DNA of 64,000 nucleotides from Pomacea canaliculata. Its lineage: Eukaryota. Shown here in pieces: positions 3,001 through 64,000 of the stretch (its first letter is position 1; every line of letters starts with the position of its first letter). The stretch spans positions 13,301,353 through 13,365,352 of the forward strand of contig NC_037594.1 of assembly GCF_003073045.1 (NCBI RefSeq), read 5' to 3'. The translations under genes and the position numbers were made by a program. The notes beneath the pieces are model-generated. The model saw nothing but the letters and a program-made list of their open reading frames with translations. It was not told the DNA's origin and made no database searches.

Positions 3001-3798
3001 TCTAAATGTCTTTAAGTGAACGTGGGGGGAAAAAAAGAAGAAAAAAGTGAGAGAGACAGGAAACGAAAGAAAAAGGACGAGGGGAGAGAAGCAGAAGATT
3101 TTTTTTTCTGCATAAGAAAAATGAGTAAGACAATTAATTACCTTCTCCTCATCCCACCTCTATAATTAAGCACACAAGACCTCGTTTCGCGCCTAACAAA
3201 GAAATGACAGAAGGCAGATTTTCTAACATTTCTGCACCTTGTTCTTTTCTTGTACGGAGTTATTTATTACGAGTACCTGCTAAGAAGCACGGCACCTGGA
3301 ATCAGCCAGTATAACTTGGGCTGTTTCCCAAGATAATAGTGAGTACAGCGACTTTGTGCTTCAATTTATTAGTCACATCCACCCGCCCAGCGAGCCTCCA
3401 GTTTCTTCTGACAAAGCCTGCGGGCCAGGTTCAAAAGGTAAATGTTGACACGAAATGCTTTTCTGTGGGCTTACGTGTCTGTAAAACACTTGGGGATACT
3501 TTGAAACTGCCGCCGGGGTAACCTCGATATTTAATTATATTTTTTTTCCTGCAAAGCTTGGTTAAATGCTTTCTTCTTGTGGCCTAAAACGTCTGTCTGT
3601 CTGCACAAGACAAGGAGATCCTCTTTGTAGAGAAAGAGTAATTTCCAAAAGGAAAAATTCATTTTACCTTTTGAGAGACCTACCCTGCAATACGTTTTTG
3701 CTCGTCACAACTTTTCATATTATATCCTTGAAAATACAAGGAAAAACAAGACAAAATAGGAAAAAAATTAATTCTGTCACCGATAATTACTTTATAAA

Positions 3799-3802
<4 letters not shown>

Positions 3803-3841
<39 letters not shown>
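3803..3841. repeat. poly(T) homopolymer, ~39 nt
   Basis: Read directly from the sequence. Confidence 0.95.
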
Positions 3842-3843
<2 letters not shown>

Positions 3844-6800
3844 ATGAAGCTAAGTGTCTTCAAACTGGGGTATTTGAGCTGTCAGCATGGATAAGAAATT
3901 TGTGGTTGGAAATTATTAAGAGTTAGTAAGCGTGTAACAGGTCGAGGATTGCTGGATACATGCAGAGATGTATGAATGTTTGTGTCATTACTTTTTTCCT
4001 CTCTCTCTCTCACACACACACCACGAGCAACTGTGGCGATGCGAATGTATTTCTATATGATACTCTTCTTCTCTTATATCTGCTTTTGTTTTGAGATTGA
4101 GAGAGAGAGAGAGACTGAATTAGAGAAAGCTCTAGTATTCTTTCACATACTTGTTGATTGTTGATTGATACCCTTCCAATCCAATTTTTTTAAAAAAACC
4201 TGTCTGCCTGTGTGTTTGTCTGTCTGGAGAATAATTTCAGTCATAATGTCTTTGTAGATTGCCTGAAGCTGGCGAAACCCGCCGAGAGAAGCTGGGTATC
4301 TTTCAAACGACGACCTTTTTTATCACCCATCTCCTTCCACAGACACTTTCTTTTCGCCACCCGTCCCATCATCTCCCCTCTCATCTCCTCTCCGCCTCAT
4401 CTTTTTACGTCTGCCGGCAGAAGAAGGGGCTGGTCCAACGGAAAAGAGCCTCTCTGAGAGCACGCGCAGCAGACTGAGAGAGGTCTAAACTCGCACAGCG
4501 ATATATCCTCTTCTTTCCCTATTAAATCGTCTCCCCCTTCGATTCCGCAGGCACTACAGATAGGTGGCGCTCATAACCTGCTCTGCTCTCAGCACGCCAC
4601 CCATCTATCAAGAACATCAAAGAAACAAGAGCGGTAATTACCTCCTGTATTTCTCGACAGCAGCTTAAAAGGTTTGAGAATGGTTTTGAAATTTATAGAC
4701 CGTTAGTCGGCCTATTCATATTTCCACTTAACTACCGTTGGTTACGGACCGCGACGCAACCCAAGAGTGGTCTGTCAGAACAGTCCAAGTTATGTGCCCT
4801 TACAGCCAGTCTCGGCGCTTCCATGTACCGTTAGAATGACTCGCAGACCGTTTATTGACATTGTCTTCTTTCTTCTGCTGCATGCTCGACGTCACCGCGC
4901 ATTTCGAGAGTGACTTTTGCCATCCAGTGATTGGTCCATTTGCACAAATAAAAGTCGCAGGCATGCTACTATCAAAACTATTCACGTTAGTCGTGATTCT
5001 TCTGCCCAAGTTTTGAAAAAGAGACAGCTATAAAATGAAATAGTAATGACAAGTATTACAAGCTGTTTACACGACAAAATAAACAAAGCTTTTATCATAG
5101 TTTAGACTCATGCATAAGAATAAGAATGGATGACATCCATTTTTAATGGAACTGTGACTGGTCAGTGAAACCACAGACTGGTCCGTACCACCACATCATT
5201 TAGCTACGCCACATCGGTTAGAGCACCACACCGGTCACTGACATACACACAGTGGTCAATGACCGGTCAGTCACATACCACACACACACACAACATGCCT
5301 AAAGCTTGCACAAGGGAACCTTCCGTGCACGCGCCCACAGACAGCCCCAGCCCACCCTGCACGTGTGAATTGCATGCAATGTTTTTCTTTCCCTTCGCTG
5401 AGGTTATGCGCGAGAAATGAGGGCTGGAGGACCACTGCCCTTTTTTTTGGCTGCACGTTTCCTCTTTCTTTATTTGAGTCGGAACCTCCTTAAACGTGCC
5501 ATCTTTAATGACAAAAAAAGGTTATGGGTCGTAGCGACAAACACAAACCTTTCTGGAAAAGTTCTGGGGCAGAATGCATGAAACGGGCTCACAGAGTAAT
5601 GCCAACAAAATACGCAGACATCTAAGTCTTTGTTGGAGAGCCTGAATGTCTGAAGACATTACACTAGTCTGACATCATTTCTCCGTTGCACTTTGAAGTC
5701 CGGGGCTGAGGTCCGAAGCGAGGATTGTGATTGCTCTCCCTTCAAGCATCATGTCCCGGATGTTAGTGGATTAACAACTGGCAGGTTTAAGTAAGCGAGA
5801 AACCAGTGTCCTACCGCCACGTGCTACAGTAAAACCTTTCCTACACACAAGCTCGTTAAACACATCTGATTCATACCTTTTAAAATTCACGACGAATGCG
5901 TTTCGTGTCTCAAAGCATTACCGTTACTGCTCTTCGTGCGCCCGGCTGACTACATTAGCGGAGGATGTAGACCAATCGTCTTTGGGGCCGAAGGTAGGAA
6001 AGCTAAGTAGGACCAGCAGAAATGTGGGAGTCGTGTAACTAGGTGTAGACCTTATGGGTCAGGAGATAACCTGGAGGTCCACCTCTTGGCTACATCAAAG
6101 GGTTGTAGTTATAGATCAGAGATAAAGCTGCTTCTAAGGCAGCCATATATCCCTGCTCCTTACCTCAGAGGTTGGCCAACAGCCTTGTCTCCGCTCTCGC
6201 AGACCACTTCAACAGGCATGGGGTTAGCTTAATATGTATAGCTTTAAACCAACAGATGTACAAGTAAATAAATGATCAGCATAATGACTGATTGGATCCT
6301 TTCCAATATGAGATTCTTTCCCGTCGTTTCTTATCTGGTGAGTTCGGCAAAGGATTTTGTCCGTCCCTCCACTCCCCTCCTGTGTGTTTATCTCAAGGTG
6401 AGGAAGTTTTGCTGTGACACCGGGTCATGCAATGGGGCTAGGGAGCCACCCGGGGGCTGAAGATGCCGCCGTCGCTGCTGGCTATTTTGCGCAATATTTC
6501 AACCGATGCTAACAGACGGGGAATATGTTTTCAATTTTGGCACTTGTCGGAAAACGCCGACTTCAAAGCCAACGTTATGATGGTCTCAGCAGGAGCTGCT
6601 GCTGGCTTCGAGAAGTCTCTATCACCGCTCCAAGTCAGCTCCTTAAAACTGATGGAAGGTGGGGGTAGGAGAGAGAAGGATGGAGTTGGGCAGAGAAGTG
6701 GGTGTAGTCATGGAGATGGCTAACTTGTGTTGAATGATTCGCGAGGAAGCTCATTTGGGGAGAGGGGAGGTGGTGGTGAATTTAAAAGGGGGAAAAAAAT

Positions 6801-24480: not shown

Positions 24481-25069
24481 GTGAATGCCATGCAACAGGC
24501 AGTCATGGGTTTTCGTGTCAGTTAACCGACACTGTCTACTGACTACAAATGATCTGTTGCAGCTACTTAAGAAGACGACACCTTGTACTTTTGCTTTGGC
24601 AGGCTGCAAGCTCTCTGCGCGTGGTGATTGGCTTACACGCCCAGGAACACTCATCGAACCTCTTTTCTGCGACCGACCTCTGTCCGTCATGTCAACTTCA
24701 TTAGCCTATCAATCGCGCATGCCCTTCCGAATCAGGCTGGGTGTACACGACATTTGATCTTGCCTGGAGAGATAACCTGTGTTGGTAGAAAATTACAAAA
24801 GTGTCGCAAGACTGAAATTATAATGTTATCTGAAATGTTACAAATGTTAACTGAAATGCACCAAGGTTAATATCGTATTCTAAGACCGTCTCAGTGACAT
24901 ACCACAGCTTGGATATCACGGAGGAGAAGACTGCACTCACAAGTAATCTGTAGCAGTCCCGCGACTGCGTTTCCCTGACGAGGACATCCAGAACTCAGCA
25001 GAGAACCACGTGACTTCAGTATTGACAATCTGCGCCACGAGTCCCTCGCCGAGACTGGAACCCTGGTCA

Positions 25070-25868
25070 ATGCTTACCACCATGGCAAGTCTGGGGGCCG
25101 GGCGAGACTCTGGCAGCCCGCTGCCCCTTCCCCTGGCATTGACCACCGCAGAGCGCCGGCACTACCACCTGCATCCTAGTCATCACCATCATCATCACCA
25201 CCATCATCACCAGCTGCTGGCTTCACCCTACGATCCCATCCGGCGCCTGGCATTGGCAAGGCTGCCTCCGCCCCGCCGTCCGGTCGCCAACAAGCCCTTC
25301 ACGTCCTTCTGCATCAAGGATATCCTGGGTGGCGAGGTGGACAAGGAGGATGTGGCCAAGCTGCAGGCGGGACAAGGCAGCAGCATCGCCACCTCCGCCA
25401 GCAAGTCGAGGACAGCGTCGAAGAGCGGAATAAATAAAAATAGAGGCCAGACTGCCAGTGGCAACATCATTAACAACAACAATAATAACAACAATAGCAG
25501 CAACAGCAGTAGCATAGACAGAACTCCAATAACGGCCGCATCCCCTTCCCACTCGTACCCTCCTAATCTCTCCCCCTCCGCTCGCATCCACGTGTCGGCC
25601 GTCAGTGTCAACGGCGCGCGGATCGTGCGACCCTGGGCACCCAGTCCCAGCAGCCCGGACACCGAGATCTCGTCTGACGACGGTGGCGATACGTATCAGG
25701 ACATTGACAACGATGACGATGATGACGAGGAAATCAGCGTGGACGACGACGAGCCGTCCCCCAGGCTACGCGCCGCTAAGACCGGCAAGTCAGGCGTGTC
25801 GCCGCTCGATGCCCTCATGGCCATGACCAGCAAGACCTTCGAGGGACTCGAAACACCAGACGCTGCAG
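25070..25868 (+). CDS. Lbx: Lbx (ladybird-like NK homeobox) exon 1: N-terminal region with eh1 motif, His10 tract, poly-Asn/Ser tract, acidic block and the Lbx 'MTSKTFEGLE' motif. It ends at donor CAG|GTAACC in phase 1.
   Basis: An open frame runs from ATG 25070 (MLTTMASLGAG...). A second in-frame ATG at 25082 has a stronger Kozak context (ACCACCATGG). The 'M' that the ORF track places at 25010 is a GTG and is not the start. 'NKPFTSFCIKDILGG' matches the eh1/Groucho-binding motif at the LBX1 N-terminus ('NKPLTPFSIEDIL'). 'LDALMAMTSKTFEGLE' matches LBX1 'LEELASKTFKGLE'. The donor G|GT at 25868/25869 leaves one nucleotide (G), which joins 'AC' at the start of exon 2 to give Asp and continues into '...ARRRDQAALFGKHAPPKKRRKSRTAF'. 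Confidence 0.8.
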
Positions 25869-25884
25869 GTAACCTTATATATAT

Positions 25885-25965
25885 ATACAGTGTGTGTGTG
25901 GCGAGTAGGCGCTTTATAAATGCCTTATTTACTATTACTTATTATTATATTACATCACACACAGC
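25885..25965 (+). mobile_element. 5'-truncated copy of the same SINE-like family ('ggcgctttataaatgccttatttactattacttattattat'), immediately downstream of the exon 1 donor
   Basis: It shares the GCGCTTTATAAAT core plus the (ATT/TAT)n tail with the copies at 21685, 39465, 7875(-), 19160(-) and 51695(-). Confidence 0.4.
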
Positions 25966-28900
25966 TTGCTGGTGCTGATTTATTACATCACAGCGGGTGC
26001 TATTGACTGTGTCGAATTATAGCGAAAAAGTGATGCCTGATTACAGCTGAAACATACCATTGATGATTAACTGTATCATAAATGTTACAAAGTGATAAGT
26101 GATCATGTCACAAATAGCATATATGTAATACCTAGTTTCACCAGAAATATCACACAAGGGATGAGCAAATTAATCAGAACTATTACACAAGAGATAATGG
26201 ATTACTCCACAAACATAGCGTAAGAGAATCTTGGTTATATACCTCAAACAGCATACAGGTCATGACATATGTTTAATTATATCACATATATCATGAAGCG
26301 GTTTTTAATTATATTACAAATATCGCAAAGAGATGCTTAATTATATGAGATATAGCACACAGGAGATGAGAGACTATACCATGAAAATATTATATAACGA
26401 TCCTTGATTACATCATGTCAGGCTTGCCTGTATGTATCATTAGCATAAAGAATACTTGAGTAGATCATTATCATAATTCAGACGTTTGGGTCTAATATTA
26501 TTGTCATAAAATCAGAATATTATATCTGAGTTACAGAAAAAGTCTTACTTTTAAATACCACAAAGTAAAGAGTGGTTATCGGTTATCTATCGTCTGCGGC
26601 TGACCGCTGGCGCTTGTCTCAGTATGTATTTCACATCATTACTGTTGATAACGACAGCAAAACATGGAGCGTGCAAAACACGACCACTTTATTCTACGAG
26701 GCCATTAAGTTCTTTCATGTAGGTGGCAGAATGAGGAGTATCATCCACCTCCTTTTTAATCTTGAGTGTGAGTGTGTGTGTGTGTGTGAAACTGGTAAAA
26801 AAAAAAACAAAAAACAAAAACAGTCGAAACAACTCAATGCCATCGACATTATTTTTTACCTTTAAAAAACGCAAAAGTCATTGTAGAAAAAGCAAAATGA
26901 AACATAAACAAAGGCATGAACAAATATATATGTACACACACACACACAAGTGTGCTCACATTCATACATAAATACGACTAGGCATACACTGAGTGCATAA
27001 TTATGACTTCTTAATATTCTACAGCATTTTATAACGGTTAACGGTCGTTAATCTTGAACTTCTAAACTTTTCTTTCAAAGAAGCCAATATTCACAACCAA
27101 TCAACCGCGAATAGCCGTCAGCCAAGCGCTCTGTCAATCAAATCCCCGTTAAATGATCAGTATAAAAAATAAATAAATAAATAAATAAAAAATAAAAGAG
27201 CTAGCTAATTATACAGACGCCAAAGAAAATAAATCAGCGAATGCGTATTTATCTGCTTAACTATTGGAAATACTTACCCATCGAAGCTGCCAACCGCAAA
27301 ACAAAGTCTGCAAATTAGGAATGCTGCTAAAATGAATGAAAAAGAAACAGAAAACCAGAGTCTACAGTTGAGACTAGACGAAGAAACAAAGATTACACAA
27401 AACACAATTAATGGTTAAGCACAGGCAGGTAAAAAATGGAGGGAATTAGAATAGCCTATATATTATTTTTATGCGTGTCAGAAATGTTACGAGGCCTTCT
27501 AACAAATGCCGTACTAACAAGCGCACTTTCTCTTTTTTTCTTCTTTCTTCTTTCTTTTTCTTCTTTCTCCTCGTTTTTGCCGAATACTCACTTTGTTTTC
27601 TTGGCGGGATTAGCATGAAGGTCCACAGCAAACATCTTGATATTCAACATTTCAGCTTCATGCTGGTTTCTCTCAGAAGGGTGAACAATGAACCCTGACT
27701 GCTCGTGTAAAGGCTGAGGCAGATGCTGGAAGTAGAACTTGCAATTTTATCACAAACAATATCAGCCATTGAGGCAGAACAAAAGATACTCCAGGCTTTG
27801 TTAAGTTCCACGCTACGCACTCAATCATCATCGTGTACAGTGAACTGTTTTTGATTAACTAATGATTAATAAAACAAAAAGGTAGAGGTTTCTGTAATTA
27901 ACATGTAGTCATTCATTTCATAGATATTCAGCTTGCATACTCGCATGGGTGCATTTATACATATAAACTGATGAAATATATATGTCTATGTGTGTGTGTG
28001 TGTGTGAGAGAGAGAGATAGTCGGTATGCTATCTGTGTGTGTATGTGTGTGTGTGAATCGGTGTGCTGTCTATCTCTGGGGGAGGAATTAAATATGTGCT
28101 AGCGTACAAACGGTAGGAACCTGACTGATTCCGACCACTGTCTCATAGTCGCCTTTCACGAGGATGTGAAAAAATGTGTGAGACAAACGCTTGTGTGTCG
28201 TGATATGTCAACCTTTTCTGACCAGAAAGAAGGAGACTCTGACAAGGTGGCGGCTTTGTCCAGGTATGCCTGATTCTCATTGTCCTCCGCTACTCGCCTC
28301 CTCAACTCCCTCCCTATTCACTGCCACCTCCACCCATCATCCCCTCCACTTTATACATACATAGTGCTCATTCGAACAAGACGGCGTCTGGATTAACGAT
28401 GTATGATGGTAAGAAGAGCGACTGGCGTAATATTTTCAAACAGGCCTTTATTGGCAGGTGAAATGGCTTAGGCGGGTAAGCATCAAAAAGTGAGCATCGG
28501 TGCCTAGGAGTGAAACTAGTGGTGCAGATCGTATCGGAGCAGCAGCGTTACGACCGCCCCTTATCCTCCAATCTTTATTGCTTACACAAGACAGGTTTGA
28601 ACTGCTGACGTCGGGTAATGGCGACAGGCCGGGCTTGCAGGGCCTTTTCACTCGCTCGTTAATCTGTGCGCGACCAGTCGATACACTGTGCTGACTTTTA
28701 TACGCATCTGCTTTCTTCTTCCCATGAAACTACATTTTTTTAAGTGCTCGTTTAAAAGTCAGCCTCTCTCTTGAAAATAAAAGCGAGGAGATCAAGTCTA
28801 ACGCCCTTTAAAAATTGATAAATGGGGGCCGCTTTATATCCTCCATTTTCAAAAGATCTCGCACCAAAGGATTTTTGTGGCATTGCTAGACGTCTGTAAT

Positions 28901-51780: not shown

Positions 51781-54700
51781 CTCGCTATGATTTCCCCTCC
51801 CCACCCCTAAAAAAATCCACACATGCATTAACAGAAACAATAGTAAAAAAACCCAACTGACAATGCGCTATATATTTTTTTTTCTTTTGCGTATCTTTCT
51901 TTCCGTTTTATACGTTCTTCCTCCTCTTTCCTTTTTTCTCGCTTTAATCATCTTTTGATAAATCTGTCTTAAGTAAGACCCTCTTCCTCGCAAATATTCA
52001 GATCACCGATGCACACAGCCCGAAAGGTATCCTTTTGATAAATCCGGCAGTGACAGGTAACAAGAACACCGTCTCGCCACATGAAAAGCAGCATATAAAG
52101 AAGTATATATATAGTTTCACCCTCAGGAGCCAACGCCAATCTCCTGCGAGGATCTTAGGCAACCAGGCCCGTGTGTCTGTCGTCTCGCTCTAGTCCATAT
52201 TGTAGAGAAGGATAGGATGTCGGAGTTGGGTTACCATGGATAGTTTCACTCCCTCCGCTAAATCTCTCTCTAAACTGGCTGATGCTTGGTTTTAAGCTCG
52301 TATTCTCTCATTCACCCTCTAGATTCCAGACTTGAAGCAACCAACATCCCCGTCTATTTAAAAGTGCCAGCACTTAGCTGCTCAAAACTGCAGAAGTGTT
52401 TTTGTCTTAACCTTCTGGTTTCTGGCAGATACATTCCCTTCGAGATGTGGGGTTTTATTACCCCTCCTATTTGCATTAGTAGGCAATGGATTGTGCGTCC
52501 CTTTCAGTCTGGATCCTCTGTGATCTCCTATTGCTATCCACACATGAGGACAAAGACTTCCGCACGATGTTTGGTTGTTTGTCATATTATAGCTTTTTAG
52601 CATTCAAGGTATTAAATATTAATGGTCAAATATAAGTGAAGGAGCATTGCTCACATGTTCTCTGAAAAGCGTATGCAGCGCTGATGGAGTGAAGGTAAAA
52701 CGATAAAAATCAGTTTTTAGGAAAATCAGCTTGGAAAAAAGTCTTAGCCTTTGTCGGTCATCCATCTTAGCTCTTCTTTCCCTCTCGCTTGCTGCCTCTA
52801 AAAGCTGTTAGGACGCGTGAATCTAAGAGGGGGAGCACCGCCAACAATATACCAACACCTTGCACAAGGCGGCGGCGGTGTATGTGGCGTGGGTCCGGCA
52901 GGTTTCGTACCACTATCGGCACTCGTAGGGAGCTTGTCTGTGTCTAGCGAAATAGGGAGGCAATTAAGTGGTTTTGAAATGTGATCTACACCACGCTGGA
53001 GACTGGTCTCAAACACGGCAATCAGAGTAGCTCTTTGCACTGTTATTCTCGTCACCTGCTACTTCAACACCCACGCACGCAGACATACGCACACACGCAC
53101 GTACTCGGCCAGCATGCAAGAAAGCTACAGCGTCAGACTTGACACAACAGCGAGGCAGGGAGTAAAGCCTGGCTCTGCGGGAGCCGTTACGAGAAACCGC
53201 TGCAGGACGTCTAAGAGTTGTCAAGTCGCATGTTGTTGTTAAATGGATGCCCTCCCTTGCATTGTTTCACTGACACATGACAGAAATTCAAGCGGAGAGA
53301 TTAGCTAGGAGTCTAAGAGCAACGCGGTTAAGAGAGAGAAAGAGCGAAAAAAAAAAAAGAAAATTATTTTGTTGGAGTGTCTAAATGCAAAGGAACCCTC
53401 TCTCTCGGGGGTGGGGAAGTGAACACTCACTGTGGCCAGACATGCTTTGGTGACTTCAAATAACAAAAAACTTTTTTTTCTTAAAATTCCTTTTGCTGTA
53501 TCAAAGATTATTTTTATTTGTTTTCATTGTTGTGCTTGTCTTATCGTCAGAATATAGAGGTGTAAATTTTGCGGTAATCTGCGAAGAGGAGTAAAAAAAT
53601 CTTCAGCTGAGGGGATTGTGTGTACAGTCGTGGCATTGTCGGAGCAGAAATGGATCTTACATTAAGAAATGTTTGGTATGTTACGAGATAATAACTGATA
53701 ATAAGACTAAAATGAAAATATGGTGGCCAAGATGAAGATTGTTCTTTCTTGTTATAAAACATTTACATAATCTTTTACTTTGTGTACTTGCCTGAATGAT
53801 ACTGGGTACATAGAAATCTGTAATGCCTCATATGTTTGCGATTCCTCATTTTCGTGTCTCAAGCAACATCGTTTAAGCCTTGTTATCAATCCCGATGAAA
53901 ATTATTATATTCCAGGTGTTATAGAATCTGATTTTGCAATTTATATTCTTCTGTATAAGGTACAGTGACTTGAAAAAGAGGTATATTTTAAAATGTATCC
54001 AATATTTGTCAGCTTTTCTTTTATTTTTGTCACTAGATAACAGTAATAGGAGTGCGCCTATTAATGTGGTCAAATACCTCTCTGAAACTTTCGAGGTTCG
54101 CAATTTAAATTGAAAGCTATTCATCACCGCAGGCTTAATCTTTTGTTTCCCTGCTTATTTTTACGAATACTCTCTGCTTGTATGTGTGTGTATTTATGTA
54201 TATGTGTGTGTGTATATATATATATCTGGGTATTTAATAACAATGCTGATTAGACGCAGAGAGTATAAAAATAGTAGTATTATATATTTATGAGACACAT
54301 CTATAGGCGATAGTAACTTGTGATACACTTTGATTTTGTAATATTCTTTTTACTCTCTTGAAATAGGTCTAAAGTTCAGATTCAAATTTTCTTTCATACC
54401 CTCTCACCTCATCTGACAAAATGTCTTACAATATTATTTTTTATTCCAACTACGTGTTTTCTTTCTCATATTGCCAGCTAATGCTTATTTTTTGAAAGCA
54501 CACTGAAGCTCCTTAAATTTGGGGTTGCGCGTCAGATTCGGACACAAAAGTTACCTTTTAATTTATTAAATTATTTATTTAATATATTAATTTGAACTAA
54601 ATTTCAAACGCACCTTGTCAAAGACCCTAAACAAACGTTTGGTGTTAGCATGCCATTTATGTCGGTTCCACCGAAGAAGCAGTTTCAGAAAAGGCACCTC

Positions 54701-55605: not shown

Positions 55606-58340
55606 ATTTTTTTTTTTTACCTCCTCTCAGAACAGCAACGTGCACTAGTTATTTTTACTGCCCTAGATGGCAGCCTTTCATACTATTTGTAACTGCATCC
55701 TAGTTCAGAGAAATATCTGATCGTCACGGCATTAAATTTTTAACAGTTCACCATATTTTGGCTCCCCCTTTGTCCTGGCGAAATTTACGACGCGAGCAGG
55801 GAGGTGAAATATATGTAAATGGGTATTTCCAAGTTGATGTGTATCAACGTGGGTAGCGGTGTCCGCTTTCAGATTTTGTTTGGGGGGGGGGTACTTGCCA
55901 CATACACTCTATTATTGAACAAGTCCCCCCACCGTACGCCTTAAGATGCCACCTTTCTCTCGGCCACTAACCCGTCCACCATGTGCCTCACCGACCTCAC
56001 CCAGTGCCGACTAGGCGACCACAAAGCTTCTCTCATACTGGTTCTGGTTATTAATCTCGTCACTTCGCAACACTAATCTCTCCAAGAGTGGGGCTATACA
56101 TGGCTGAATAAAGAGATTTAAGGGGGACAGGCCTTAGAGGAGATATGACTAAGAGAAAATAAATTAGCCACACACATTTTCTCCATCAGATTTAAGTTTG
56201 AACCCTTTGTGTATCATCGTTCAAAAGTAGAAATTGACTCTCTCTACGCGTCAAACCTTGTAATTTTTTTTCGGTCCTCTCGTTTTTGTTTTTTTTTTTT
56301 TTTTTTTTTTGTCATAACAAGACTATGCACTCTGTAATGCTGACAGAGCCTTTTGTCCAGATACAAACGTTTGCGATTGAATGCGCAAAACAATAAAACA
56401 ATAAATAAATAAAATACACAGTGTTGACACATTTCGAGAATTTTCCTCGTTTTGCAAATCTGCAGTCGAAGTTCCGAAGGCACAAACGTGACACATTTCC
56501 TTATAAGACATGAAATCATTGTAAAAGAAAGGATTCTTGCATCTCCCGACAGAGACATGAAATAACGTCTTGTTTCTAGAAGTTCTCAGCTGTTGTGTGA
56601 CTCTGTGGTCATTCATAATTTAGCTCAGTGGTGCAGCTCAGCAGCGGCCATTCATAACTGAGTGGCTAGTCAAGATGAAATGCGACTGCAAGGGGCCCCT
56701 GGTCATCTGACGGTGTGCCTTGTGACCACATTATTGAATTATCCTCTTTCTGGGACTGACAAGGTGATTCTTGCTACATCTGGGGTCAGTTCAGTCAAGA
56801 CTTCCTTTTGGCTTTCATCGCCAAAGTTAATTTCCTACCTATTTCCTTTGGGAGAGAGAAGATGGCGGTGAATGGACACTGTGTCCAGCCACTCATTTCA
56901 AAGCTCTACTGATAGCCTGCGGATAGCTACAAATCTCCCATTCATGACTAAAATGTCACTGACGACATTGTGTTGCAATTACTAAATCTATTCTCTAGAG
57001 GTTTTTTTTTCCAAACCCACATGACACGTGTTAATCACGACAGTGGTGCGCTCTGTTGTTATGTTTCCTAGTCGGGTACAGACATCGTAAAGGAGGGAGA
57101 CTGTGGAGACCCTAACTCCCCACACCCCCAACGCTAATTTGTTTGTCGTCGCGAATAGAATGCAAGAAGCAGGTGGTGCGAGTGATTGCTTTTAATACCG
57201 GCCACACCTGATGGTGGAGGAGGGATGAACAGGGGGTCTCAAGGATTTAATGTATGGTGAAACAGAAGCCGAGTGAACTAAGGGGCCTGCAAATGTCTTT
57301 CTGTCTATGGAGCGGAGGAGGATGAGGGAAAGAGGGCATAAGACCATACGCCGAGATCTCTGCTGTCAAGACACCCTGTAATTACTTCGAGAAGACCACC
57401 TGACCAGGAGGGCCTTTGAGGTGTGAAGTCCGGTAAACCGAGTGACTCTTAGGCATAACGACACAGACCACACTGGGTGTTCTGACTCCCACTGACCTCC
57501 GCCTTTCTCCCTCACTTGACTTACGGCGTATGCTATTACCAGCGGGCACAACGACATCAAGCACATAGATTCAAGGGTCACTCTTTAATGCCTGTCTAAT
57601 TCCGCCAGCTGGCGAGGACTTTGACCACGTATTCACCTGTTTCATAGAAGTTGTTTGACACTCGTCACACTTGCGATGTCAATGGGAAATGGAAAGCAGC
57701 CACACGCTTCAAGTGTCTCTTTATGTGCGTATTTTAAGGCTAGACTATGTAGTGGCATAAAAAAACCTACCAAACACCAAGAAGCAAGCGACATTCTAAA
57801 CACATTCTTTTACATAGATCATCACGTTTTCCGAATATTACTACTGCTACTACTAGTAGTAGAAGAAGATCAAAGACAGGTCATGTGTACATACAGTGGG
57901 ACTAGGGGAGATAGTGGAACAGAAACCAGTGTTAGCCATCTGAGAAAAATTTGCAGTGATGTCACGTCTAATCAGCGAAACCAAGGAAAGTAGCGTCGCA
58001 TGTTGCAAGCGATACACGAAGGTGTTGACTCGCTTCTCGGTTGGAGAGTGGGCGTTTCGCCATACATTAGCATAACAGGTGCACTCAGTCACATCTCTCA
58101 TCCCAAAGCAAAGAATGGTAATCAGATAAATTGAGTTCAGCGCGTTTCTCAATTTGCACCGGTATCGGATGTTTTCCTTCAATCGGTCGCAAGTGCACCT
58201 GTGAAGCAAACAAGATTTGTGACCTATCACCGATACACCACTAGTATTATTATTCACATCGAAAGTACTCTCACCAAATGGAAAATCACAGCTGGAAAGA
58301 AGACTTTCCCTTCTTACTCTCACTCGGCCCTGAGCACAAA

Positions 58341-58385
58341 GAAAGAAGAAGAAGAAGAAGAAGAAGAAGAAGAAAAAAAAAAAAA
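58341..58385. repeat. (GAA)n microsatellite followed by poly(A), ~280 nt upstream of the exon 2 acceptor
   Basis: Read directly from the sequence. Confidence 0.9.
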
Positions 58386-58669
58386 GAAGAGATTGAAAGA
58401 AAATAGGAAAAAAAAAAAGGAGGAAGAGAGGTTCATACTTTTTTTTAATACTTTATTCAAACCTTATTCTGTCAGTTCATCAGTGTATGGGCAATTAGCT
58501 CCTAAATGTTTTATTACAGGCCTTGCTTCCCCGCTCGGCTTAATTAAGAATTCTCTTGTAATTGGCCCAGCCAAAGCGCGTGATCAGCGCACGCACTAGT
58601 CCGCGTCCGCCCCTCCCTCTTCCCTGAGGCCCTTGGCCGTCGTTTGACGCATCACACTCTCTGTTGCAG

Positions 58670-58857
58670 ACGCCCGGCGACGCGACCAGGCGGCGCTGTT
58701 CGGCAAGCACGCGCCGCCCAAGAAACGGCGCAAGTCGCGCACGGCCTTCACCAACCAGCAGATCTACGAGCTGGAGAAGCGCTTCCTGTACCAGAAGTAC
58801 CTCACGCCGGCAGACCGTGACGAGATCGCACACAGCTTGGGGCTCACCAATGCACAG
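58670..58857 (+). CDS. Lbx: Lbx exon 2: pre-homeodomain basic region plus homeodomain residues 1-44 (RRKSRTAFTNQQIYELEKRFLYQKYLTPADRDEIAHSLGLTNAQ)
   Basis: The acceptor is ctctctgttgcag|AC at 58669/58670. The translated sequence is near-identical to the first two-thirds of the LBX1/ladybird homeodomain. The donor is CAG|GTACAG at 58857/58858 in phase 0, falling between homeodomain positions 44 and 45 (Q|V), which is the conserved NK-like intron position. Confidence 0.92.
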
Positions 58858-59249
58858 GTACAGCATCGACCCTCAAACTCAGTCGTTATTGTTTACTGTC
58901 GTATGATAAAATAATAAAAGAAAATCGCCAAACAACCCCCTCTCTTCAGCAAGAAAGAATACTGCATGTCTCCCCGTTTCTGTATCTGTGCAACAATTTT
59001 TCCGACTGTGTCACTAGATGCTGTTTATTGATAAATGTCAGAAAATATATGGGAGATAAAAGACTGAATCATATAACTGAAAACGCTTATGAACAATTCA
59101 AAACCTCAAACGCAAACCCGTTTGCCACTTTTGTTATTAATAATAAAGTTTTTATTTTTAGAAAGTACATTTTTAATATGACAAGAAATACTTGGTGCTG
59201 AATGCTGACCTCTACTCCAGCTAAAGGAGATTTTTTTTTGTTTTGTTAG
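58858..59249 (+). other. Lbx intron 2 (392 bp, phase 0, at homeodomain position 44/45)
   Basis: GTACAG...TTTGTTAG boundaries, AT-rich interior, pyrimidine tract before the acceptor. Confidence 0.88.
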
Positions 59250-59948
59250 GTGATCACGTGGTTTCAGAACCGACGTGCAAAGCTGAAACGGGACCTGGAG
59301 GAGCTGAAAAACGACGTGACGGCTGCCCGCAAACACCCGGTGCACAAAGCGTTAATGGGTACAATGGCGGAACTGCAGCTGCGCAAGGTGCACAGTGACG
59401 TGCTCAAAAAAGCCGCGGCAGCTGCGGCGGCGGCAGAAGCTGCGGAGGGCAGCGGCAGCAGGAGCGGAGAGAGAACGCTGCACGTCGAGGACGGCCGCCG
59501 CCGAGATTCCGCAGCGACGCCGCCCCCCTCGTCACCGTCGTCGTCTTCAGCCACAGGACCATCCCCCTCCCCCTTGCCGTTGTCTTTGACCACGTGCAGC
59601 GCGCTCTCTCCCAGCGCCAGTTGCCACAGCAACAGCAGCGCCAGCCATCTCAACGGCGGCTGTCTGCGGTGCGGGTCCACCTCGCCAACTGCTGTGGACA
59701 CAGACACCGGCAGCAAGCTGAACTCGAGCGAGAAGGCGATGGACGCCAGTTCCTGTGCTGACTTGGACAGCGCGGCTGGCCGCAGGTTTGTGTCGGACAA
59801 CAGCCCGCAGTCGCTTGACGGGCAGGAGCCCGAATCAAGGGCGCAAGAGGACATGGACACCTCCAACCCTACGGACTGCGAGGGTAAGAGGACGAGTATG
59901 GAGGACGAGGAGAGGGACAAAGCCTCACCCAAAACTCACGACTCTTAG
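59250..59948 (+). CDS. Lbx: Lbx exon 3: homeodomain helix 3 (VITWFQNRRAKLKRD), the conserved post-homeodomain LEELKNDV motif, a poly-Ala run, a Ser/Pro-rich acidic C-terminus and stop TAG
   Basis: The acceptor is ttttgttttgttag|GTGATC at 59249/59250. 'VITWFQNRRAKLKRDLEELKNDVTAARK' matches LBX1 'VITWFQNRRAKLKRDLEEMKADVESAKK'. Total CDS length across the three exons is 799+188+699 = 1686 nt, in frame, ending TAG at 59946..59948. Confidence 0.92.
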   Translation: MITWFQNRRAKLKRDLEELKNDVTAARKHPVHKALMGTMAELQLRKVHSDVLKKAAAAAAAAEAAEGSGSRSGERTLHVEDGRRRDSAATPPPSSPSSSSATGPSPSPLPLSLTTCSALSPSASCHSNSSASHLNGGCLRCGSTSPTAVDTDTGSKLNSSEKAMDASSCADLDSAAGRRFVSDNSPQSLDGQEPESRAQEDMDTSNPTDCEGKRTSMEDEERDKASPKTHDS

Positions 59949-60461
59949 ATCCGCTATGCTGAAATCGGCGTCTTGCGGTTCGGCTAGACATATTTTTGTG
60001 TGTTAAATGGCGAAATCACTCAGAGAATTATCAAATCTGGAGTAGCAGAAACTGCAAGAGCACCAAAGAGACTTTGTCAGACCGAAACAAGAAGTGTCGT
60101 TCTCGATGACTCACGATAAACGGGGACGAGTCTCAGAAGAAGTGCGTTACAATCAGTGTGGACGGCTTCCGGCTGCCTTACTTACGTATGAAGTATAATG
60201 GACACGAAGACGAATCTGGAGCGCAGTTCAGTGAGACAATGAGCTTCAAGACAACCATTACAAATCGTCAGCGAAACTTTCGGTGGTTGAACTCGATCGC
60301 CCGTTAATGGGAGTGGGGTAGGCTTTGACGCCATCTTAGTCTAGGCTGTCATGGGTTTGGGGAAAATGCTCCCAAGCAACCACTCTTTGACGCCTCTTAA
60401 TTTAAAAAAAAAAACTCACACGCTGAGCTCCCCCAGCAACCACTCTTTGCCGCCTCTGAAT

Positions 60462-60467
60462 AATAAA
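60462..60467 (+). terminator. Candidate polyadenylation signal AATAAA, ~515 nt downstream of the Lbx stop codon
   Basis: This is the first canonical AATAAA after the TAG at 59948, within 'ctctgaataataaacacatgctg', and it is followed by a GT-rich stretch. Confidence 0.35.
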
Positions 60468-63418
60468 CACATGCTGACACCGTTCTAGTTGAAGTGGTAG
60501 TGACATGAACAAAAACAGACAACACTTAAGAGTGTAATAATGGACTGAAAGTATTGGTAATACAGACAGGTATAGATATTTGGCATTAATTCAGTCTACT
60601 ATAGACTTGTAGTGACATAAACAAACAGCAATCGGCGGCAACTGCATGTGCAGCACAAATAGACAAGTCGCGATACGCTCAGTCCCAGCAGACCCACGAC
60701 AGACGCCAAGGAAAAGAATTAAGCAGCTGAACACTCTTTAAAGCCACAGAGTTTTAATTAAGCCACACATTTGTTCCTATATTAACTTGCCTGTGTCATT
60801 CTCTGGCTCTCTGTCTCTGTCTCTCTCTCTTATAAGGTTTCTCGTATGTGCTCTCCGCCCGTCTGATGGGAAACCACAATGATTTTCAACTGATTTTCAT
60901 TTTCTTTCTTCATCATTAACCAACACAAACGACCTTTCATATTTTTTTCTTAATCTCTTTCTCTTACCCTGCTCATCACCCCTTCATGGCTTGAATGTTT
61001 TAAGTGGTCGATAGCGTGCGTGTTTTGGTGTTCACGCTGGCTTTAAAAAAAAGTGTATGGGCAGAAGCAAGCGTGTAGGGAAGGGAAGAAGAGAAAAGGA
61101 AAGAGAGAGAAAGGATGAGAGAGGAAAAGAGAGGAAGAGAGAGAAGAGGAGAGCAATTTTTTTAAAGTCTCAACATTCATTCATGAAGATGAGCTGTGTA
61201 TAGTGCTTTTGCTCATTACACCAGACTGGGATAATAAATGATGTGTGACAATGAATGGACATGCAGGCCATACCAGACACCATGTCGTGTCTCGGTGTCC
61301 CTGTTAAAATCTGGAATCACATCTATCGAATGATGGCCCTAAGTGTTGCTGACGGTTTACTGTTTTGTCCTGTGGAGAACAATGAACAATATTAAAAAAA
61401 TAGCCTGCATTTTTGTAGCAGATTTTTTTATGGATTTGTTATAAGCTACATGCACAGACCATTAGTGTATCTTTTTGAATATTTTAATGACTCTTCTGGT
61501 TTATATAATTATGTATATTTATTTCAGTCAATATACAATAATATTTCTTTTTCCTATGTTTTGTTCTGAGATGTTCATTTTTCATTTAAATAGTTTTGAC
61601 TATCAACATAAAAAATAAACTTTGTTTGGACATTTTAAAAATTGTAACGACTAAGAAAAAGGAAAAGAAATAAGATTGCAGATGCTTAGTTTGTGTCGGA
61701 TAGACACAAGAAAGAGGAAGGGGACGAAACATTCGTAATTACACTGACATGGGTTAGTTTCAAGGCCCCTCACCAGCTAATATATTATCAGTCTTCCTGA
61801 GCACCCTGCGCCCACTCCCTCTAAACATTACCTTGAACAATCAACCATTCGCCAGGTGCATAAATCAAGAAAACGTTAACTGAAAATGTTACGATTTTAT
61901 AATTTGTGTGTGTGATCCAGTTCCCCGATACGAGAAAAACATTCTCGGAGTACTCTAAAACATACGGAAAAGAAAAAAAAACTTTATTGCTCAGCGATTT
62001 CTGTGTGGATGATTCAAAATCTAGTTAGAAAAATCGGCTTTATATAGAAAATTTCTATTTGAATATTCGTGTAGATTTTTGTTTGATGTCAAATTGTACG
62101 GAACTATACTTTTTCGGTATTGGTAAAAATTGTCCTTAATACTAAAAGAGAAAAAAGTATTAAATAATTTAAATATGAAAAATGTTGATTTGTCGTCTTT
62201 GGAACTCTTAAAATATTATGCACCACGCCTATCTTTAAAGCACACGTGCCACTACTGGGTTAGCTTTGTCAGTTTGCTGACTATTTTTTTTAGTTTTCTT
62301 TCACACACACATATATATAATAAAATGCATTTACTTTCCCAAGTCCCGTGCATTGGCGTGATTAAGGAAAATGGTAGGATGCGAAGTGAAAACTTCTTCT
62401 ATCTACTCACAATGTAACCTCTATTTATTTTTAATTCAGCCTCTGGAGGCAAAATATTCATACAAATATTATTCGACGAGGGACCTTGGCACTTTAAGTT
62501 TTATGCATTCACATAAACTTACATAAGTCTCTTGTGCGCTGTTGTTTAGTTTCTGTTAGATACAAAAAAGCAAACAAGGCAAAAATTTCCGGAATAATCT
62601 CCGTCCTGAATAGATAAACATTTGGTCAATCAGATCAATCGTCTACAAATGAAACACTGCCCGGTACTTAGTTGGGTTTATAAAGATCAGAAAAAAATAA
62701 TTAAAATGCAAGTCTGAAAATATATAAGCCGAGCAAATACGTGGGAAACCTTTAATTAAATGCACAGCGGCTATCAGCAACTAGTGAACTGGGGGTAGAA
62801 TTTAGAAAAGTTTGACAGCGTCGTGTACTGCCTTTACTAAACTGCAAAATATCTCTGAAAAACGCGAAAACAGCAAAGGGACTGGTCGTGAGTAGTAAAA
62901 CTCACCCTTCTGCTTAACATAAAATCTCTCGGCGCTCGGCGCCATGTGAAATGCAATCAACGACGGTGTATTGCGTATCAAAATATGCACTGGATTCCAG
63001 ATTCCCATGCACATCTCAAGTAACAGGTAAAAGAGGAAAACACACACGCACTCTCTCTCATTTCTCTCGAAAACTATAGACAAAAAAAAAAAAAAAGTGG
63101 AGGGGGTGGTGGAACACATGCAAACACGAACGAATGCCACAAACTCAAAGAGACTACACGGAGACAGAGAGGCGGATGGACGAAAAAAAAAACAAAGACA
63201 AGAGAGAGAGGAGAGAGAGAATATGAATAACTGTATAAATTGCACTGAGTAGGCCGTTGGCCTATTTCAAGGAGCAAATACAGCAGAAAAAGTATATATC
63301 AGTTATTGTGATCTGTGTGTTGTGTAAATATATACCAAACTCTAATATTGTTGTAAGTAGTATAGGCATGTTGTTTTCACCCCCTATTTGGGGAGCCGTT
63401 TTGGGGAGCCGTGACGTC

Positions 63419-63656
63419 ACACCCGCCGGAAGTCGCACGGGGCGGGCCATCTTGCCGAAGTGGCATGGAGACGGCCATTTTGATGAGTCTATATCCGTGG
63501 CGGCCATCCTGTCGACCATCTTGCCGGAAGTCGCATGGTGCGTCCATCTTGATGAGGTCATATCCGTGGCGGCCATCTTGTTCGGCCATCTTGCCGAAGT
63601 GGCATGGAGGTGGCCATCTTGATGAGGTCACGAGCGTGGCGGCCATTTTGTTCATA
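63419..63656. repeat. Tandem repeat of ~3.4 units at ~70-bp period, each unit carrying CCATCTTG (YY1 core AAGATGG on the other strand) and CCGGAAGT (ETS) motifs. It is preceded by the direct repeat ggggagccgt x2 and a perfect CRE palindrome TGACGTCA (63412..63419).
   Basis: Three full units (63447..63516, 63517..63586, 63587..63656) align by eye at roughly 85-90% identity. The ORFs that the track calls across this region (63377..63655 -, 63411..63683 +) are repeat artefacts. Confidence 0.85.
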
Positions 63657-64000
63657 CCCCCTCATCTTGTCATACCCGAGTGATGGTTGTTTTTGTATTT
63701 GTGGAAAATGTATTGAAAGAGCCCATTTCGTCAAAGCTTAGAAAAGTATAAACTTTAATAAACTTTGTCCACCAGTCGCCACGAGGAGGCAGGGCTTTTG
63801 TTTGACTGGCAAAAATGTGTTTGACGCACAAAGAACAAGAAAAACTTTTATCACAACTTTGAAGATATCGCAGTCTAAACGGGAGCAGCAGTCTCAAATA
63901 TCCAACGGTACGGTAGTCAACCCATCGGCAAGGACCTTTCGCTTGATGTACAGATAGGACAAGAGTTGCGGTGTTGTTGGTAGGTAAACTAGATTTACCA

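Follow-up and report, generated by a model that had tools for sequence, protein, structure and literature searches.

The window (the whole stretch of DNA analysed, 64 kb) comes from Pomacea canaliculata; it carries the ladybird-type homeobox gene Lbx and, near its 3' edge, a GC-rich block of tandem repeats lying close to a ribozyme-like fold on the minus strand. The coding exons of Lbx were placed at ~25070–25897, ~58667–58860 and 59250–59948, with a 33-kb intron, and the closest named homologues of the protein are gastropod LBX1. A previous sequence-only reading had put the block ~3.7 kb downstream of a homeobox gene; it is downstream, but the array starts ~3.5 kb beyond the Lbx stop codon (59948). 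Features of the gene and the block are listed below, with the strand where one applies and the basis of each assignment in brackets.

25070–59948, plus strand: Lbx (XP_025094843.1 matches the window exons)
63387–63412: 13-bp duplication, reading ACGGCTCCCCAAA twice on the minus strand (Tandem Repeats Finder and repeat search)
63412–63419: perfect CRE/ATF palindrome TGACGTCA (sequence reading and motif scan)
63425–63444: partial A-type unit with the first intact ETS core (63426–63433), overlapping the GC box (repeat identity, nhmmer and motifs)
63439–63446: GC box GGGGCGGG (motif scan)
63445–63653: 70-bp array, 3.0 units (Tandem Repeats Finder, in-register copies, unit profile and motif positions)
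63654–63719, minus strand: unique 66-nt spacer from the ribozyme candidate to the array (sequence reading; no repeat or RNA-family matches)

The ~70-bp tandem array described earlier near the 3' edge of the window is real. Tandem Repeats Finder (TRF) returned 63445–63653 with a period of 70, 3.0 copies, 83% matches and a score of 288, and a repeat search of the window gave three in-register copies plus a partial fourth; this partial unit (63425–63444) is 90% identical to 63523–63542 and was also seen as a partial nhmmer match at 63425–63453. Matches of the unit profile within the 64 kb (E 1e-21 to 1e-23) were confined to the array copies. Unit types alternate, U0 resembling U2 and U1 resembling U3, which indicates duplication of a 140-bp dimer. 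Within each unit there are three YY1/Pho cores of the GGCCATCTTG type together with an ETS-like site and a TGAGGTCA-like site, and on the minus strand the YY1 cores read CAAGATGGCC(G). Two or three YY1 cores per unit had been claimed, and three were found at up to one mismatch: nine GCCATCTTG-like YY1/Pho sites lie at 63446–63650, 9/9 on the plus strand and three per unit, at a spacing of 28/29/12–13 bp, with only four of the nine exact GCCATCTTG. An ETS core in every unit had been claimed as well; intact CCGGAAGT is present in only 2/4 units (at 63426 and 63524), and the remaining two have CCGAAGT in its place, a 1-nt deletion that destroys the GGAA core. The YY1 cores of the array are conserved no better than the spacers (variable columns 6/30 versus 13/41, p=0.29), in a test that is low in power because there are three units only.

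To the left of the array, the duplication reported as 'ggggagccgt' was recovered, but its true extent is a perfect 13-mer, TTTGGGGAGCCGT twice in tandem at 63387–63412 (TRF, 2.0 copies, 100%), which in a minus-strand view would form the distal end of the GC-rich block. The perfect palindrome said to precede the array was located at 63412–63419. The GC box at 63439 was absent from the earlier reading. A 19-bp direct repeat (63367–63385 and 63644–63662, 79% identical) brackets the block and is probably chance or a degenerate unit end. From the array to the window end the sequence is unique (347 bp).

Canonical 8-mers for CRE, ETS, GC box and YY1 occur together inside 63412–63453 (42 bp). Null sets were 300 random 64-kb sequences with the composition of the window and 300 with the GC-rich composition of the array. 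The maximum number of distinct motif types per 60 bp was two in the first set (300 sequences) and three in the second, attained in 3/300; four types in 60 bp occurred in 0/600 random 64-kb sequences, so the block is promoter-like in origin and not a product of chance. Canonical Pol II promoter motifs are clustered in it to a statistically non-random degree, in the form of tandem monomers, and the block stands out as an island of 60% GC between flanks of 37–46%. The CpG observed/expected ratio was uninformative as an indicator (0.85 for the whole window, 0.99 for the array).

Three Rfam HDV-family models aligned full length at one minus-strand site, 63810→63720, with 28.8 bits for RF02682, 25.1 bits for RF01787 and 20.7 bits for RF00094; all three scores fall short of the respective Rfam gathering scores of 44, 37 and 50. 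E-values of the ribozyme matches were 0.0015 and 0.006 locally, and 0.25 and 0.97 for the whole window and all families. No Rfam match at gathering thresholds was found across the whole window, and no tRNAs were found in it. From its sequence and predicted fold, the site is a previously unnoticed candidate for an HDV-like self-cleaving ribozyme, with the following elements.

63720–63810, minus strand: candidate HDV-like self-cleaving ribozyme (Rfam models and structural descriptor)
5' of G1 (63810), minus strand: predicted cleavage site (fold)
63810–63804 with 63777–63771, minus strand: P1, 7/7 pairs including a G1.U wobble
63796–63792 with 63724–63720, minus strand: P2, 5/5 pairs
63790–63788 with 63780–63778, minus strand: P3, 3/3 pairs
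Within the ribozyme candidate, minus strand: L3, 7 nt, UCCUCGU (sequence reading)
63770–63769, minus strand: P1.1 GG, 2/2 pairs
63767–63759 with 63740–63732, minus strand: P4, 9/9 pairs
63730, minus strand: putative catalytic C, in ACGAAA at J4/2 (sequence reading)

The nested double pseudoknot of this ribozyme-like fold is complete, with 0 mismatches in 26 base pairs, and the HDV core nucleotides are present (C-C and G in L3, the putative catalytic C in J4/2) when compared with the published HDV-like core features (PMC3774820). In the MFE fold of the candidate P1, P3 and P4 were formed and the P2 strands were left free. A structural descriptor, composed after the candidate had been seen, matched only this site in the window and gave 0 matches in 1.3 Mb of other real DNA; in random sequence it matched once in 350 × 128 kb (~1 false positive per 350 window-equivalents). 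drz-Agam-1 (RF01787) and HDV-F-prausnitzii (RF02682) share with the candidate the nested double-pseudoknot layout, the core CCUCCUCGUGG and the full-length alignment, whereas the candidate comes from a mollusc, has a long, AU-rich P4 and reaches 25.1/28.8 bits against gathering scores of 37/44. On the minus strand the array begins 66 nt downstream of the candidate. A check of 20 metagenome loci with YY1 arrays found no HDV-like ribozyme beside any of them.

In translated searches nothing matched the minus-strand ORF of the array or the ORF spanning the ribozyme region, and the plus-strand ORF of the array, searched against 1.84 billion representatives, matched unrelated repeat proteins only; with no relative found for either strand, the array was ruled out as coding sequence. 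No exon or ORF start was found on the plus strand in the 347 nt after the array. Exact contig look-ups of 31 ORF sequences (28 of them from 61255–63957, alternative starts counted) gave no matches. Logan contigs from Pomacea sequencing runs carry the exact Lbx exon-3 ORF; they stop at 61164 and are 1.3–2.8% divergent from the window. Homologues of the window unit were sought in viral contigs (0 matches) and among the metagenome DNA matches listed (none). The Lbx loci of Lymnaea, Elysia and Plakobranchus (10 kb downstream each) and a fourth gastropod locus, L001 (~1.3 kb downstream), match the window only in the exons and in low-complexity GA or poly-A sequence. Downstream of Lbx nothing similar to the array, as DNA or translated, was found at these four loci, and in Lymnaea, Elysia and Plakobranchus no neighbouring gene start is conserved over the 10 kb behind the gene.

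A metagenome scan for three GCCATYTTG at 27–30-bp spacing yielded at least 120 loci, a count that is no evidence of enrichment, and most of the listed loci are unrelated tandem repeats that happen to carry the 9-mer. Among the matches listed, only L047 and L049 have the trio of YY1, ETS and CRE as tandem units; both are eukaryote-like and not homologous to the window unit, and their unit had 0 matches in viral contigs. Copies of an unrelated, invertebrate-like contig family diverge from a point ~90 bp away from a YY1-core tandem array, so that in this family such an array stands at the end of a multicopy element.

The array had been proposed as the promoter of a mobile element or of a gene continuing past position 64000. 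The promoter-like monomers agree with this, and the mobile-element idea gains unexpected support from the ribozyme candidate 66 nt from the array; but the ribozyme lies on the minus strand, so a unit with both features runs leftwards, in the direction of Lbx, and not beyond 64000, and no LINE ORF was found. The suggested check for LINE ORFs thus came out negative: the three minus-strand frames of 59949–64000 contain no RT/EN remnant or other Pfam signal. Array, spacer and ribozyme each occur at one place only in the 64 kb, and no convincing target-site duplication or poly(A) tail was seen around the unit; the sole flank match is an 8-mer, ACATTTTT, which abuts G1 and is found again at 62185→62178, a match that chance could explain. 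An LTR reading was rejected, as a second LTR copy is absent from the window and the only PBS-like match is 6 nt long.

The interpretation we put forward, tentatively and as something rather short of probable, is that array and ribozyme make up the 5' part of a non-LTR-retroelement-like unit on the minus strand, headed by the ribozyme and followed by a promoter-like leader of monomers. Read-through RNA coming from the right would be cut 5' of G63810 by the ribozyme, which would have to be active, and would so obtain a defined 5' end; the leader would consist of the ~66 nt spacer followed by 3.4 monomers. With their YY1-type CAAGATGGCC cores and their ETS, GC-box and CRE sites, the monomers would as DNA recruit ubiquitous Pol II factors, like L1 monomers, and the array may thereby have promoter activity. 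Ribozyme and array would then be members of one unit, and this unit may be mobile, now or formerly. Such a unit is probably non-autonomous or decayed, since a reverse-transcriptase coding remnant is absent after the leader; the copy in the window would be what is left after decay, or else a SIDE/SINE-like, non-autonomous derivative with an internal deletion. HDV-like ribozymes typically occupy nucleotide 1 of R2, RTE, baggins, L1Tc and some SINEs (PMC6765202; PMC3774820), and there are known cases of internally deleted derivatives in which it is retained at the 5' end (PMC3414825). Ribozyme-headed elements are for the most part described as promoter-less (PMC6765202), and the combination of a ribozyme with an own promoter is therefore atypical. 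A bolder form of this proposal, which we regard as quite unlikely, is an undescribed, compact, non-autonomous mollusc retroelement with an active HDV-like ribozyme trimming read-through transcripts and a separate internal Pol II promoter of 70-bp YY1/ETS/CRE/Sp1 monomers, beside and convergent with a Polycomb-type developmental gene; it would merge the ribozyme-headed, promoter-less design with the monomer-promoter design of LINEs.

Known systems resemble the locus in part. The 5'-UTR monomers of mouse L1Md (Tf/A/Gf) are, like the array, head-to-tail promoter monomers with YY1 sites. In Tf monomers GTCGCCATCTTG on the sense strand is an activating YY1 site required for promoter activity (PMC11602158; PMC6454616), and the core GCCATCTTG of the array equals the Tf site in core sequence and sense-strand orientation, a match at the level of the motif only. 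The mouse monomer measures ~200 bp with one YY1 site, the snail unit 70 bp with three. A tether and ORF1/ORF2 come after the mouse arrays, whose monomers number in the thousands, whereas the snail array has no ORF following it and was found at one locus in the 64-kb window. L1 also lacks a 5' HDV-class ribozyme, while the snail block adjoins a candidate HDV-like one. In Trypanosoma cruzi, L1Tc and its non-autonomous derivative (L1Tc/NARTc, Pr77 and L1TcRz) have an HDV-like ribozyme and an internal promoter at the 5' end (PMC3383444; PMC3185411), as proposed here; in L1Tc the same 77 nt serve as promoter and ribozyme, whereas in the snail a 91-nt predicted fold, a 66-nt spacer and a 240-bp array are separate. 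R2, RTE and baggins likewise have the HDV-like ribozyme at the first nucleotides of the element, which it releases from a co-transcript (PMC6765202; PMC3774820), and SIDEs have kept the 5' ribozyme and are missing the ORF (PMC3414825). R2, RTE and baggins are described as promoter-less, in contrast to the snail unit with its promoter-like array, and R2 is rDNA-specific; compared with these elements and SIDEs, the snail locus has no RT, 3' tail, target-site duplication or other copies within the window. Tandem YY1 arrays in CpG-rich DNA are also found in the mammalian Peg3, Xist and Nespas control regions, with long YY1 motifs (GCCGCCATTTTG) and methylation-sensitive binding (PMC11602158). Those are imprinting and X-inactivation elements conserved across species, whereas the snail array is unconserved at the orthologous loci examined and, unlike them, has ETS, CRE and GC-box sites.

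Among the alternatives, a Pol II promoter belonging to the host, of the housekeeping or bidirectional kind, is somewhat unlikely. It would serve a gene or lncRNA that starts at the array and runs to the right past 64000, or to the left as an antisense RNA convergent with Lbx; its proximal part would have been amplified into the 70-bp monomers, and the ribozyme-like fold would be unrelated or spurious. The compact CRE-ETS-GC box-YY1 module at 63412–63453, far above chance, and the 60% GC of the block against 37–46% in its flanks are what such a promoter would look like; its motif vocabulary recurs as tandem units in the unrelated eukaryote-like L047 and L049, and by Rfam alone the ribozyme is insignificant at whole-window scale. 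Yet within the window no exon or ORF lies in the 347 nt to the right and nothing coding to the left, and neither the array nor a gene start is conserved in the 10 kb behind Lbx in Lymnaea, Elysia and Plakobranchus (L001 covers ~1.3 kb). The breakage of two of the four ETS sites, and cores conserved no better than the spacers, also speak against a host promoter. A plus-strand core promoter (TATAAA at 63747, Inr-like CCAGTC at 63772, donor AG/GTAAAC at 63981) was considered and dropped, because TATAAA and CCAGTC fall within the stretch complementary to the ribozyme fold, and AT-rich DNA often yields matches of this kind.

The same decay of sites fits an inert minisatellite, which we hold to be unlikely: a promoter- or TE-derived GC-rich fragment duplicated locally (140-bp dimer, then duplication, then 13-bp slippage), in neutral decay and with no present function. 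Divergence between the units amounts to 17%, decay has struck cores and spacers to a similar extent (variable columns 6/30 versus 13/41, p=0.29), half of the ETS cores have been lost through a 1-nt deletion, and the block occupies one locus in the window and is unconserved at the orthologous loci examined. This account leaves the co-occurrence of four canonical promoter motifs unexplained except by descent from a real promoter, and does not explain the intact ribozyme-like fold 66 nt away (0 mismatches in 26 bp); the conservation test that favours it is low in power, with three units only. If the block is instead a single-copy decaying repeat, it would be an ordinary minisatellite derived from a promoter or a TE, with little more to interest us.

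A Polycomb-response-element-like silencer of Lbx, in which a Pho/YY1 cluster by GA/CT tracts would recruit PhoRC and Polycomb, is very improbable: nine Pho-type cores in 210 bp, several fitting CNGCCATNDNND by eye, GA/CT tracts at 63051–63068 and 63196–63220 (6/27 window tracts lie in the last 4 kb) and a homeobox gene 3.5 kb away would suit it, but the core multiplicity stems from relatively recent tandem duplication and not from conserved independent sites, the other gastropod Lbx loci examined show no conservation, GA tracts are distributed over the whole window, the accompanying ETS, CRE and GC-box sites are what activating promoters typically contain, and to our knowledge the grammar of such elements is undefined outside Drosophila.

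Should the ribozyme cleave and the unit prove mobile, a mollusc example would be added to the association of HDV-like ribozymes with retroelements. The ribozyme-headed, retroelement-like unit favoured here would, if true, be an element with its own monomeric YY1/ETS promoter, and would bear on the open question of how non-LTR elements come to be transcribed and acquire a defined 5' end (PMC3774820). With it, a CpG-rich, factor-binding repeat and a possible antisense unit would lie 3.5 kb behind Lbx and could from there affect the regulation of this developmental gene.

The 70-bp tandem array near the 3′ edge of the window, noticed in a sequence-only reading, was recovered by Tandem Repeats Finder at 63445–63653 (period 70, 3.0 copies, 83% matches, score 288), and a repeat search of the window placed the three copies in register and added a partial fourth unit (63425–63444, 90% identical to 63523–63542); the earlier description needed small corrections only. 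A profile HMM of the unit matched these copies only in the 64-kb window, and blastn of 63251–64000 against the window gave no further match. Nine GCCATCTTG-like sites with at most one mismatch (4/9 exact) were located at 63446–63650, all on the plus strand, three per unit and spaced by 28, 29 and 12–13 bp. The two to three YY1 cores per unit of that reading were thereby retained; its ETS core in every unit was not, CCGGAAGT being exact at 63426 and 63524 only, and the remaining two units carry CCGAAGT at the expected place, where a 1-nt deletion removed the GGAA core. Unit types alternate (the partial unit U0 resembles U2, and U1 resembles U3), from which duplication of a 140-bp dimer follows. 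The duplication and palindrome described in front of the array were both found, with a GC box further on:

63387–63412: perfect 13-bp tandem duplication, preceding the array block
63412–63419: TGACGTCA, preceding the array
63439: GC box GGGGCGGG

A 19-bp direct repeat (63367–63385 and 63644–63662, CATGTTGTTTTCACCCCCT and CATTTTGTTCATACCCCCT, 79% identical) flanks the entire GC-rich block, and may be a coincidence or, on the left flank, the degraded end of a unit.

CRE, ETS, GC-box and YY1 8-mers occur together inside 63412–63453. Chance clustering was assessed by counting distinct motif types per 60 bp, from eight canonical promoter 8-mers, in random 64-kb sequences; the maximum was two types at the first-order composition of the window (300 sequences) and three, in 3/300, at the GC-rich composition of the array, while four types were reached by no random sequence under either composition. 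The proposed motif enrichment was thus borne out for canonical 8-mers, the repeat structure is beyond chance and, since the four-motif cluster was unmatched at random, the block is Pol II promoter-type sequence or a descendant of one. CpG content was uninformative for the array because the window is CpG-replete throughout (observed/expected 0.85 for the whole window).

A permissive Rfam scan of 63000–64000 returned two HDV-family matches on the minus strand, and a scan of 63600–64000 returned three, full length and in a single register, each scoring under its curated cut-off:

63810→63744, minus strand: RF02682, 28.8 bits, E 0.0015, curated cut-off 44
63811→63723, minus strand: RF01787 (drz-Agam-1), 25.1 bits, E 0.006, curated cut-off 37
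63812→63718, minus strand: RF00094 (HDV), 20.7 bits, E 0.84, curated cut-off 50

The candidate RNA, which the sequence-only reading had passed over, reads GCCAGUCAAACAAAAGCCCUGCCUCCUCGUGGCGACUGGUGGACAAAGUUUA...UAAGCUUUGACGAAAUGGGCU with the core CCUCCUCGUGG, and its fold holds the complete set of HDV-like elements (P1/P1.1/P2/P3/P4) with mismatches in 0/26 base pairs:

P1: GCCAGUC/GACUGGU, with a G1.U wobble
P1.1: GG immediately 3′ of P1
P2: AGCCC/GGGCU
P3: GCC/GGC, closing the 7-nt L3 UCCUCGU
P4: 9 bp
J4/2: A-C-G-A-A-A, putative catalytic C at 63730

In the MFE fold P1, P3 and P4 were recovered and both P2 strands were free, as a pseudoknot is expected there. When the whole window was searched against 4227 Rfam families the candidate had E values of 0.25 and 0.97, and a scan at the gathering threshold did not recover the site. 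A descriptor (7-bp P1 with G.U, 3-bp P3, L3 NCCNNNN, GG, C-N-R-A, 5-bp P2 and a P4 not shorter than 4 bp), which was composed after the candidate had been seen and uses textbook features (PMC3774820), matched at 63810 (minus strand) only in the window, 0 times in 1.3 Mb of other fetched DNA and once in 350 × 128 kb of random sequence. The modelled structure is probably a genuine HDV-like ribozyme fold. Read on the minus strand, the elements follow in this order:

63811/63810: predicted cleavage site
down to 63720: ribozyme candidate
then 66 nt: spacer
then 3.4 monomers, minus-strand reading CAAGATGGCC(G)...
then GC box, ETS and CRE
then the 13-mer, twice

The CAAGATGGCCGAA of the minus-strand monomers presumably matches the YY1 site at the human L1 5′ end. 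HDV-like ribozymes are characteristic of non-LTR retroelements (R2, RTE, baggins, L1Tc and some SINEs), in which they occupy the first nucleotides and release element RNA from a co-transcript (PMC6765202; PMC3774820); L1Tc and its non-autonomous partner NARTc have promoter and ribozyme joined at the 5′ end (PMC3383444), internally deleted retroelement derivatives retain the 5′ ribozyme (PMC3414825), and mouse L1 Tf is driven by tandem monomers with the GCCATCTTG YY1 site (PMC11602158). Given these ribozyme-headed and monomer-driven elements, the minus-strand order is most economically, if tentatively, read as one unit, in which ribozyme, spacer and array would be the 5′ region of a single retroelement-like element. 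Of the readings of the block, origin from a mobile element is the likeliest, at less than even probability. The earlier proposal of a promoter for a mobile element or for a gene past 64000 is upheld in that the block is promoter-like; its direction is not, since with the ribozyme on the minus strand the unit would run towards the upstream homeobox gene and not into a LINE or gene beyond 64000.

Since non-LTR insertions are as a rule truncated at the 5′ end, one that still has this end would be expected to be full length; the three minus-strand frames of 59949–64000, however, yielded neither RT nor endonuclease nor any further Pfam signal, and the LINE ORFs for which the sequence-only reading had recommended a search were absent from these frames. 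At best the unit would be a non-autonomous copy or one in advanced decay, the latter being at odds with the intact ribozyme. The surroundings of the unit showed neither a target-site duplication nor a poly(A) tail (the flanks matched at a single 8-mer, next to G1 and with a second occurrence at a distance of 1.6 kb), and no second copy was present in the window or retrieved by translated or viral-contig searches. Less favoured than the retroelement-like unit is a host promoter, transcribed rightward or leftward, to which the ribozyme would be unrelated. An inert minisatellite derived from a promoter or TE is unlikely. In the three-unit comparison, where power is low, 6/30 columns varied in YY1 cores vs 13/41 in spacers (Fisher p=0.29), with no sign of present protection of the cores.

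The homeobox gene at 25070–59948 (plus strand) is the Lbx/ladybird orthologue, with a first intron of 33 kb:

25010–25978: exon 1 ORF, with eh1 motif
~58667–58860 and ~59250–59948: homeobox exons, the Lbx-type homeodomain being divided between the two

Its closest named relatives are gastropod LBX1; the exon-3 ORF fell in a 90%-identity cluster with Pomacea canaliculata XP_025094843.1/PVD30086.1, and the former sequence agrees with the window exons. The NCBI name of XP_025094843.1, 'homeobox protein HMX3-like', looks like a misnomer for an Lbx-type protein. The array lies downstream of this gene as described, at ~3.5 kb from the stop codon rather than ~3.7 kb. In three Logan assembly contigs from Pomacea runs (L125–L127; SRR34434926, SRR34434945, SRR34434951) the exon-3 ORF is identical to that of the window; over window 55875–61164, a span outside which the array lies, they are 97.2–98.7% identical (1.3–2.8% different) with many non-coding indels, which indicates high polymorphism or a Pomacea sister lineage. 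Sub-threshold Rfam mir-297 matches at 26905–26973 (minus) and 54178–54243 (plus) were not taken for miRNA genes, their scores (33.5 and 32.5 bits) being far under the gathering value of 90. Immediately left of the array lie a run of 15 A and a number of tracts rich in GA/CT (63082–63096, 63196–63220, 63051–63068, 61079–61153, 60800–60830), and the last 4 kb hold 6/27 of the (GA)n/(CT)n tracts of the window; these could be Lbx 3′-flank microsatellites, and no retroposon tail was assignable to them.

Neither strand of the array gave relatives in translated searches. Nothing similar to array or flanks was found in 10 kb 3′ of Lbx in Lymnaea, Elysia marginata and Plakobranchus, or in the ~1.3 kb available 3′ of Lbx on a further gastropod contig; matches between gastropod Lbx loci were confined to exons and GA/poly-A low-complexity sequence. 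A PRE-like role (Polycomb response element, as a possible silencer of Lbx), a motif-level idea, would be very improbable, as the array is without conservation at other gastropod Lbx loci, its cores vary like spacers and GA tracts are distributed across the window.

Metagenomes were scanned with three GCCATYTTG at 27–30-bp spacing; the matches listed were mostly unrelated tandem repeats, with no homologue of the window unit among them, and the YY1+ETS+CRE vocabulary occurred as tandem units in two contigs among the matches listed. One (L049; SMVA01095529.1, 1–4868) has an ORF for a protein-primed DNA polymerase of Polinton/Maverick type (3–2729, PF03175, E 4.6e-47) and a PC4-like ORF (3442–4059, minus strand), beside which a ~44-bp tandem array of GCCGCCATCTTG, TGACGTCA and ACTTCCGG occupies the contig end (4520–4830). 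The other (L047, minus strand of Ga0163179_10138615; 1.8 kb, no ORF of at least 120 aa) has 30-bp tandem units GCCATCTTGGATGACGTCACTTCCGG at 520–700, then the same motifs inverted, a layout that looks like a bidirectional promoter. At least 10 contigs (L010, L016, L054, L063, L067, L109, L111, L113, L120, L122; samples Ga01263xx) belong to one family, whose ~57-bp tandem unit contains perfect 12-mer matches to the YY1 consensus (GCCGCCATCTTG); the array end and ~90 bp (…GGTCATACGACAAAACAT…) are common to the contigs, which then diverge into at least three contexts, so this array is the terminus of a multicopy element, probably mobile and of an invertebrate-like host. Its nearby ORFs had no Pfam matches, and no HDV-like ribozyme was found in the family. 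A further GCCATYTTG array contig (L088) has two tRNA genes and two histone 3′-UTR stem-loops over Rfam gathering at 324–951, by which many of the matches listed are eukaryotic host DNA, not microbial. These arrays are to be read as analogies to that of the window, without homology.

Array and ribozyme candidate each fall in a known class, the monomeric TE-type promoter array and the HDV-like ribozyme. Elements headed by a ribozyme are as a rule described as lacking a promoter (PMC6765202), so the combination of ribozyme and promoter would be unusual; that the locus represents a compact retroelement with a ribozyme at its 5′ end and a monomer promoter of its own is doubtful, and such an element would carry both at one end.
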